This document shows positions 31,897 to 33,495 of a stretch of DNA of 64,000 nucleotides, piece after piece. Within the stretch, counting starts at the first letter, position 1. Each line of letters begins with the position of its first letter. The position numbers were made by a program, and so were the translations under genes. The notes under the pieces were generated by a model, which saw only the letters and a program-made list of their open reading frames with translations, did no database searches and was not told the DNA's origin. The DNA is from Escherichia coli O127:H6 str. E2348/69 (GTDB lineage: Bacteria; Pseudomonadota; Gammaproteobacteria; Enterobacterales; Enterobacteriaceae), in assembly GCF_000026545.1 (NCBI RefSeq), contig NC_011601.1; one strand, written 5' to 3'.

Positions 31897-33495
31897 ATGC
31901 GTAAAACAGTGGCTTTTGGCTTTGTCGGCACCGTACTGGATTATGCCGGGCGCGGCAGTCAGCGATGGTCGAAATGGCGTCCGTCACTCTGTCTATGCCA
32001 GCAAGAATCGTTAGTCATCAATCGACTGGAATTGTTGCACGACGCCCGCTCACGCTCGCTGTTTGAAACGCTTAAACGCGATATCGCCAATGTTTCGCCA
32101 GAAACAAAAGTGGTGGGCGTTGAGATTGAACTGCATAACCCATGGGATTTCGAGGAGGTTTACGCCTGCCTGCATGATTTCGCCCGTGGTTACGCGTTTC
32201 AGCCAGAAAAAGAAGACTATTTAATTCACATCACCACCGGTACCCACGTCGCGCAGATTTGCTGGTTTCTGCTGGCGGAAGCACGTTACCTGCCCGCCAG
32301 GTTAATACAATCTTCGCCACCGCGTAAAAAAGAACAGCCGCGCGGTGCAGGTGAAGTGACGATTATCGATCTCGATTTAAGCCGTTATAACGCCATCGCC
32401 AGCCGCTTTGCCGAGGAACGCCAGCAAACGCTCGATTTTCTTAAGTCCGGCATTGCCACGCGTAACGCCCACTTCAACCGCATGATTGAGCAGATCGAAA
32501 AAGTGGCGATCAAATCCCGCGCACCGATCCTGCTCAACGGCCCAACCGGTGCGGGAAAGTCGTTTCTGGCACGACGCATCTTCGAGTTAAAACAGGCGCG
32601 GCATCAGTTTAGCGGCGCGTTTGTGGAGGTGAACTGTGCCACTCTGCGCGGCGATACCGCCATGTCAGCGCTGTTTGGTCATGTGAAAGGCGCGTTTACC
32701 GGGGCGCGGGAGTCGCGGGAAGGATTATTACGCAGCGCCAACGGCGGGATGTTATTTCTTGATGAGATTGGCGAACTGGGCGCAGACGAACAGGCAATGC
32801 TGCTGAAAGCCATTGAAGAGAAAACCTTTTATCCGTTTGGCAGCGATCGCCAGGTGAGTAGCGACTTTCAGCTGATCGCCGGAACGGTGCGCGATTTGCG
32901 TCAGCTGGTTGCCGAAGGCAAATTCCGCGAAGATCTGTACGCGCGGATCAATCTCTGGACCTTCACCCTGCCAGGATTACACCAGCGCCAGGAAGATATT
33001 GAACCGAACCTGGATTATGAAGTGGAGCGCCACGCCTCACTCACTGGCGACAGTGTGCGTTTTAACACCGAAGCGCGGCGTGCCTGGCTGGCCTTTGCGA
33101 CCTCTCCCCAGGCAACATGGCGCGGCAACTTTCGCGAACTTTCTGCCAGCGTCACGCGGATGGCCACCTTTGCCACTAGCGGACGCATCACACTGGATAC
33201 GGTGGAAGATGAGATCAACCGTCTGCGCTATAACTGGCAGGAGAGTCGCCCCTCCGCGCTTACGGCGTTGCTGGGTACAGAGGCAGAAAACATCGACCTC
33301 TTCGACCGTATGCAACTGGAAAACGTTATTGCCGTTTGTCGTCAGGCAAAGTCGCTTTCTGCTGCCGGACGACAGCTTTTTGATGTTTCGCGCCAGGGTA
33401 AAGCCAGCGTCAATGACGCGGATCGGCTACGCAAATACCTGGCGCGTTTTGGTCTGACATGGGAAGCAATGCAGGATCAGCACAGCTCCAGTTGA
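31897..33495 (+). CDS. rtcR: Sigma-54-dependent transcriptional activator RtcR
   Basis: 532 aa; AAA+ sigma-54 activator domain (Walker [15 protein letters not shown] motif); divergent from rtcBA. Confidence 0.93.

Follow-up and report, generated by a model that had tools for sequence, protein, structure and literature searches.

The convergent genes rtcR and glpR of Escherichia coli O127:H6 str. E2348/69 share the last 19 bp of their coding sequences (33477..33495; TCAGCACAGCTCCAGTTGA), and the evidence assembled here indicates, with a probability that we put at roughly 85%, that two genuine genes overlap here in the ordinary convergent manner, with Rho-dependent termination taking place inside the opposite gene. 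Positions refer to the window, the whole stretch of 64,000 nucleotides that was analyzed. The overlap itself is already known: it is present in the reference annotations of both E. coli K-12 and E2348/69, and the Rho region discussed below is listed in a published table. Having been part of the standard annotation of E. coli for decades, and fitting the textbook account of short convergent overlaps, it matters little.

The rtcR coding sequence (31897..33495, + strand) encodes 532 amino acids and ends at a TGA codon (33493-33495). Its product (WP_001232900.1) is the sigma54-dependent activator of rtcBA. On the opposite strand, glpR (33477..34235, - strand) encodes 252 amino acids from its annotated ATG to a TGA codon at 33477-33479 (WP_001296480.1), and is preceded in the glpEGR operon by glpG and glpE, to which the RefSeq annotation assigns 34252..35453 (- strand). 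The delimitation of rtcR and glpR draws on the list of open reading frames (ORFs), on Pfam and on RefSeq. Pfam searches detected a full-length architecture in both products, encompassing the RtcR domain (PF06956, residues 2-185), Sigma54_activat and AAA_lid_14 in RtcR, and HTH_DeoR and DeoRC in GlpR. The location of the rtcR stop codon 19 bp inside glpR, put forward in a sequence-only reading of the window, was borne out by the sequence, by the ORF list and by the RefSeq annotations of E2348/69 (rtcR 371559-373157, glpR 370819-371577) and K-12 MG1655 (rtcR 3558268-3559866, glpR 3559848-3560605), which present the same 19-bp overlap. The reannotation of a stop codon, named in that reading as grounds for refutation, was not seen; RefSeq retains both stops, and the frames are backed by full-length homology.

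Analysis of the reading frames outlined a simple arrangement. On the + strand, the 19 bp correspond to the tail of RtcR, (D)QHSSS-stop, and on the - strand to the end of GlpR, (I)QLELC-stop. The third codon positions of the two genes lie opposite each other, and the rtcR TGA is formed opposite the final T of the glpR Ile codon and the CA of the Gln codon that follows. Depending on the frame, a + strand ORF entering glpR would generate an overlap of 19, 95 or 135 nt, the real rtcR frame yielding the shortest of the three. The pair hence presents the features that define a convergent overlap, with genuine ORFs on opposite strands sharing 3' nucleotides in several species. In practical terms, a glpR knockout that removes the last 19 bp of the gene strips rtcR of its stop codon, and the reverse is also true; any deletion or insertion at the 3' end of either gene likewise damages its partner.

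A 14-bp convergent overlap between yhhA and ugpQ (60016..60029), also noted in the sequence-only reading, was found to agree with the sequence, the ORFs and the annotation in both E2348/69 and K-12. yhhA (59589..60029, + strand) encodes a DUF2756 protein of 146 amino acids and ends in TAA at 60027-60029, and ugpQ (60016..60759, - strand) encodes a glycerophosphodiester phosphodiesterase of 247 amino acids and ends in TAG at 60016-60018. The K-12 coordinates (yhhA 3586943-3587383, ugpQ 3587370-3588113) define the same 14-bp overlap, as does RefSeq for E2348/69. rtcR/glpR and yhhA/ugpQ are the two overlapping pairs among the ten annotated convergent pairs within the window, the other eight presenting gaps of 31-219 bp. 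In K-12, a Term-seq 3' end was located on the sense strand of yhhA at 3,586,994 (+), approximately at window position 59640 and 51 nt into the gene, in two growth conditions. With a Rho score of 0.65 and an intrinsic-terminator score of 2.5, this 3' end does not depend on Rho, and it may be premature or the product of processing. The annotation of the window also revealed a decayed toxin-antitoxin pair between envZ and pckA (7253-7924), composed of nadS and a frameshifted RelE/ParE-family toxin pseudogene, and a segment between glgP and glpD (37202-40187, - strand; 364867-367852 in the record) with a frameshifted PstS-family gene and two hypothetical genes.

[quoted passage not shown] 2021; PMC7815308, Supplementary file 2). 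Reads upstream and downstream of this position amounted to 154 and 29 without BCM, and to 153 and 256 with BCM, for a Rho score of 8.9 and p = 2.7e-27 (PMC7815308). Readthrough on the glpR strand therefore increased upon Rho inhibition in K-12 MG1655, as defines a Rho-dependent terminator. The published method compares 800-nt windows and the position is hence approximate; as reported, it lies 334 nt past the glpR stop codon, inside rtcR, and corresponds to window position 33143. Transferred to E2348/69 through the gap-free alignment of rtcR, the K-12 region would define a Rho site at 33143 and a putative 3' extension of the glpEGR transcript, antisense to rtcR, over 33143..33476 (- strand). 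The C/G ratio is 1.05-1.33 over positions +1 to +170 past the glpR stop codon, a weak bias of C over G in a segment where the RNA is untranslated and where a C-rich, G-poor rut region would be sought. In MG1655, glpR carries a 1-bp deletion at nucleotide 151 (window 34085) and is annotated as a pseudogene; the gene is intact in E2348/69. Because of this deletion most of the glpR RNA is untranslated in MG1655, and Rho loading could take place earlier there than in E2348/69.

The glpEGR operon is transcribed from multiple promoters, two of them inside glpG, and glpR is its last gene (PMC5442614). The upstream genes of the operon would hence supply the transcription that reads into the overlap. 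Transcription past glpR would run for a few hundred nucleotides antisense into rtcR, with Rho stopping it once the RNA is untranslated, and rtcR transcripts presumably end in a similar manner inside glpR, or through head-on collisions between RNA polymerases. For K-12 3,559,000-3,560,799, the published tables list neither a Term-seq 3' end nor a Rho region on the + strand, an absence that low expression could explain.

The absence of intergenic DNA between rtcR and glpR implies that no intergenic terminator is possible, and that RNA extending over the stop codon of one gene must be antisense to its partner. The proposal that convergent mRNAs are complementary at their 3' ends is consequently upheld insofar as both overlaps are real, but the complementarity at rtcR/glpR is not limited to 19 nt, since glpR-strand RNA reaches 334 nt into rtcR in K-12. 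Similarly, the stated lack of an intergenic terminator is correct, there being no intergenic DNA and no conserved intrinsic terminator, but it does not amount to a lack of termination, which on the glpR strand is Rho-dependent in K-12. The presence of antisense glpR-strand RNA in rtcR should be borne in mind when examining strand-specific expression or Rho-inhibition data for these genes.

A different explanation for both 3' ends would be a cryptic bidirectional terminator, intrinsic or of the collision type, embedded within the coding sequences. Collision-driven bidirectional termination has been documented at convergent gene pairs of E. coli (bioRxiv 10.1101/2022.10.23.513370), and several sequence features could be read in this light. 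A scan for intrinsic terminators over 32500-34500 returned 6 weak sites, not a clear excess over the 2.6 +/- 1.9 obtained in shuffled sequences, with none of them within ~150 nt of the overlap, and a weak terminator-like site is present on the - strand at 33308-33294. The - strand RNA past the glpR stop codon folds better than shuffled sequences (z = -2.6), but the + strand fold is no better than its shuffles (z = -0.74), and the consensus fold past the glpR stop codon, computed on 9 sequences from 4 genera, showed no covariation (term +0.39). An Rfam search of the whole 64-kb window returned nothing at the overlap; its sole match was the RyhB small RNA (56972-57036, - strand, 83 bits), far from this locus.

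Two inverted repeats were also identified in the 3' region of rtcR. The first spans 33337-33374, with 12-nt arms and a T-rich tail extending to 33388 (GCTTTTTGATGTTT on the + strand), and resembles a terminator located ~120 nt before the stop codon. The second spans 33389-33446, has 9-nt arms and is followed by TTTTGG. Both were rejected as terminators, given that they are not conserved and lie upstream of the rtcR stop codon, where hairpins on the + strand would truncate the mRNA. The junction hence lacks a conserved stem-loop flanked by A- and U-tracts, and the published tables list no sharp Rho-independent ends at it, with no Term-seq 3' end in the K-12 interval given above. Furthermore, the termination reported on the glpR strand is BCM-sensitive, that is, Rho-dependent, and both rtcR and glpR are weakly expressed, a condition under which the collision model predicts poor termination. 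A terminator of this kind setting both 3' ends is, on these grounds, improbable.

Whether the overlap spans 19 or 4 nt depends on the stop codon of glpR. Across this stop, the rtcR frame reads CAG if glpR ends in TGA, and TAG or TAA if glpR ends in TAA or TAG. The sequence hence predicts that a glpR gene ending in TAA will be accompanied by a 4-nt stop-on-stop overlap and an RtcR protein of 527 amino acids, and this was confirmed in a Salmonella-type locus. The 527-aa ortholog concerned (P0028, from a cluster of 2,038 sequences with the tail DVLQN) is encoded by an rtcR gene whose TAA overlaps the TAA of glpR by 4 nt (TTAACACAGCTCCAGTTGA). The simplest reading of the 19-nt form is therefore a five-codon 3' extension of rtcR caused by the TGA stop of glpR, and the 35- and 38-nt forms described below can be attributed to small indels shifting the rtcR tail into another frame. 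In the 4-nt form the RtcR tail has the length typical of distant orthologs, and we infer that the ancestral junction was likely a 4-nt stop-on-stop overlap.

According to this model of 3' extension, the tail-to-tail overlap arose because the rtcBA-rtcR module directly abuts the end of glpR, without any spacer. The functional part of RtcR would end near the close of its conserved region, and the remainder of the protein would constitute an unconstrained tail extending to the first in-frame stop. With TGA as the glpR stop, rtcR reads CAG, runs on for five codons (QHSSS) and stops at the TGA opposite the ATT CAA of glpR, yielding 19 nt. Convergent overlaps represent 7% of the overlaps between well-characterized genes in 338 prokaryotic genomes (PMC2478687), and a passage of PMC3887535 that cites Kingsford et al. 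2007 explains their length distribution by 3' extension to the next stop. The alternation between TGA and TAA/TAG in glpR, with overlaps of 19 and 4 nt, respectively, provides a tidy worked example of overlap evolution, and no discovery.

The C-terminal sequences of RtcR are in line with such an extension, presenting both a variable tail and the alternative 4-nt state with an earlier stop. Comparison of the proteins from Escherichia, Klebsiella, Superficieibacter and Intestinirhabdus with the 120 database orthologs listed revealed C-termini conserved through a ...RFGLxW motif and followed by variable tails, which among these 120 orthologs extend for 5-14 residues past the conserved W. Most beta-proteobacterial RtcR proteins (70-75% identity) have 5-8 residues past the W, and the E. 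coli protein (QHSSS form) and the DVLQN form have 10 and 5, respectively. Enterobacterial tails fall into three classes among the orthologs listed, QHSSS (532 aa), DVLQN (527 aa) and ISTIPAVYGGRR (536 aa). Given that conservation ends at the W and that the tails vary, the RtcR residues encoded within the overlap fall outside the conserved protein. The end of GlpR is (I/V/L)QLELC in all 78 complete glpR sequences compared, and among the 80 species representatives there are 78 in which glpR stops at the same codon. The last five residues of RtcR, QHSSS, are the antisense reading of these conserved GlpR codons (QLELC-stop).

The 80 Enterobacteriaceae loci were obtained through a GlpR scan using one genome per species. 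In 60 of these species representatives malT converges directly on glpR with no rtcR in between, across a gap of -4 to 843 bp (median ~41 bp) that often contains REP-like or other hairpin repeats. Among the 80 loci, rtcR adjoins glpR only in Escherichia, Klebsiella oxytoca, K. spallanzanii, Superficieibacter electus and Intestinirhabdus alba. The 19-nt junction is present in Escherichia (three species) and in the two Klebsiella species, whereas the overlap spans 4 nt in S. electus and 35 nt in I. alba. Two further loci were reached via RtcR orthologs: a Salmonella-type cassette with a Ro60 gene (L086), which has the TAA glpR stop and the 4-nt junction TTAACACAGCTCCAGTTGA, and a Salmonella enterica rtcBA cassette (L087), in which rtcR and glpR overlap by 38 nt. 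No spacer between rtcR and glpR was seen in any genus examined in which the two are adjacent. What is constant at this junction is the absence of a spacer, and what varies is the length of the overlap (4, 19, 35 or 38 nt). Conservation of the overlap in related genomes, which had been proposed as a check, holds in that the two genes overlap in all the rtcR-adjacent lineages examined, but does not extend to the length of the overlap, and most genera have no rtcR at this location.

The loci also revealed that, across the Enterobacteriaceae, the interval between malT and glpR is polymorphic for the presence or absence of the rtcBA-rtcR cassette. Remnants of the rtcR 3' end were detected just past the glpR stop codon in an Enterobacteriaceae metagenome-assembled genome (L023, 4791-4877) and, apparently, in K. 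michiganensis (L065), the latter judged by eye over ~25 nt only. These scars indicate that the rtc cassette has been lost repeatedly. Salmonella-type loci present two forms of the cassette, one that includes a Ro60/rsr gene (L086) and one that has just rtcBA (L087), and a Superficieibacter locus (L027) contains rtcA with no rtcR beside glpR. Among rtc-less loci, the stop codons of glpR and malT overlap by 4 nt in Enterobacter sp. kpr-6 (L026, 2366-2369), and the glpR-malT gap is just 6 bp in four species (L046, L064, L068 and L080, around 4760-4766).

Of 5426 complete E. coli genomes, 5398 contain a match of >=99% identity to the 30-mer at 33471-33500. Over the surrounding 1 kb (33000-34000), by comparison, only 5 of 5425 complete genomes are at least 99% identical to the window, and 4441 show 90-95% identity; the E2348/69 record NZ_CP059840.2 matches a 1-kb query from around the junction at 100%. 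All the lineages with an overlap of at least 19 nt keep CTGGAGCTGTGC-TGA, meaning that the last 12 coding nucleotides of glpR are identical in them, as against 12 of 69 rtcR-less species, whose last 19 nt of glpR show 3.7 differences from E. coli on average. This hints at extra constraint on the overlapped glpR codons, beyond what would be expected of a strictly neutral tail, and we make no claim of selection. The signal was not relied upon, because the same codons are the commonest state in the absence of rtcR and independent rtcR lineages are few. Moreover, double coding adds little constraint here, since third positions face third positions and most synonymous changes are synonymous in both genes. 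Recent horizontal transfer was considered as a source of the 19-20 nt that are identical between Klebsiella and Escherichia, and was ruled out by the divergence of the flanking sequences (76-77% identity in rtcR and 81-83% in glpR).

Nucleotide identity between E2348/69 and K-12 is 94.2% for rtcR and 94.6% for glpR, an unusually high divergence within E. coli that concerns the rtcA-rtcB-rtcR-glpR region (29200-34235). Values are approximately the same for K-12 and the separate species Escherichia sp. E1V33 (94.4% and 94.7%, respectively). Such divergence points to allelic lineages of long standing or to recombination between lineages.

The conservation of the junction could also be taken as a sign that the overlap is a selected device, coupling the glycerol-3-phosphate repressor to the RNA-repair activator through transcriptional interference, polymerase collision or processing of double-stranded RNA. 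Such a role would be in agreement with the lack of a spacer in every genus examined with adjacent rtcR and glpR, with the retention of the 30-mer amid a diverged 1-kb neighborhood, with the identity of the LELC codons in all lineages overlapping by at least 19 nt, and with the fact that glpR-strand transcription does enter rtcR in antisense in K-12. On the other hand, neither the overlap length nor the sequence of the RtcR tail is conserved, no conserved RNA structure was found, malT takes the place of rtcR in 60 of the 80 species, and rtcR has been lost repeatedly, as attested by the scars in L023 and L065. An identical run of 30 nt is also not unusual, as the alignment of E2348/69 and K-12 contains one of 59 nt near the overlap, and antisense Rho regions beside convergent neighbors are commonplace in the PMC7815308 dataset. 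The literature search found no paper tying the rtcR and glpR regulons together, and rtcR and glpR are not mentioned in a study of transcriptional interference (PMC10349824). A selected coupling of the two genes is consequently unlikely.

A narrower version of this idea is that selection keeps the junction free of a spacer, with Rho-limited antisense readthrough from glpEGR into rtcR tuning the level of RtcR. We regard this as very unlikely; if true, weakened Rho activity or altered transcription of the glp operon would feed into the Rtc RNA-repair response.

Finally, the notion that one of the stops is misplaced, making the overlap an artefact of annotation or sequencing, for which the occurrence of frameshifted 636-aa RtcR variants in databases might be invoked, has a negligible probability and was ruled out, because the stop codons are unambiguous, both frames are validated by homology from end to end, 5398 of 5426 complete genomes carry an identical junction, other Escherichia and Klebsiella species encode the same 532-aa and 252-aa products, and the overlap is short, convergent overlaps longer than 60 bp being those that often stem from misannotation through frameshifts (PMC2478687). 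The 636-aa variants (P0001 and P0008, the latter with 14 member sequences) result from a frameshift near the 3' end of rtcR that shifts the gene into a frame antisense to glpR; this frame has no stop for ~104 codons more and is the one of the mechanically predicted ORF at 33612-33890 of the window (region 33440-33890, + strand). The coding sequences overlap by ~330 nt in these variants, which are probably pseudogenes or sequencing errors.

Set against known systems, rtcR/glpR resembles the overlapping bidirectional or collision-type terminators described between convergent genes (Ju et al. 2019; Wang et al. 2022, 10.1101/2022.10.23.513370) in being a convergent pair whose transcript 3' ends must overlap. 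Those terminators are, however, characterized by intergenic hairpins and sharp Rho-independent 3' ends, and perform best at high expression, whereas rtcR/glpR has no intergenic DNA, no conserved hairpin and no discrete 3' end listed, and the one termination event measured in it is Rho-dependent. rtcR/glpR also resembles the Rho-dependent ends known to extend antisense into a convergent neighbor (PMC7815308), as the glpR strand shows a BCM-sensitive loss of reads inside rtcR, and many other entries in the same table share the antisense class with this site. What sets the rtcR site apart is that its mapping was carried out in MG1655, whose glpR is a frameshifted pseudogene, and that it concerns the glpR strand only. 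The closest counterparts are the tail-to-tail pairs generated by 3' extension (Rogozin et al. 2002; Kingsford et al. 2007; Palleja et al. 2008, PMC2478687), with which rtcR/glpR has in common the shared 3' ends, a short overlap and a partner, RtcR, with a variable and apparently unconstrained C-terminal tail. As in those pairs, the length of the overlap is altered by point mutations or indels that move the stop codon, and the overlap is kept only among fairly close relatives. There is no essential difference between rtcR/glpR and these 3'-extension pairs, and its own peculiarity resides in the choice between TGA and TAA/TAG at the glpR stop codon, which switches the overlap between 19 and 4 nt.
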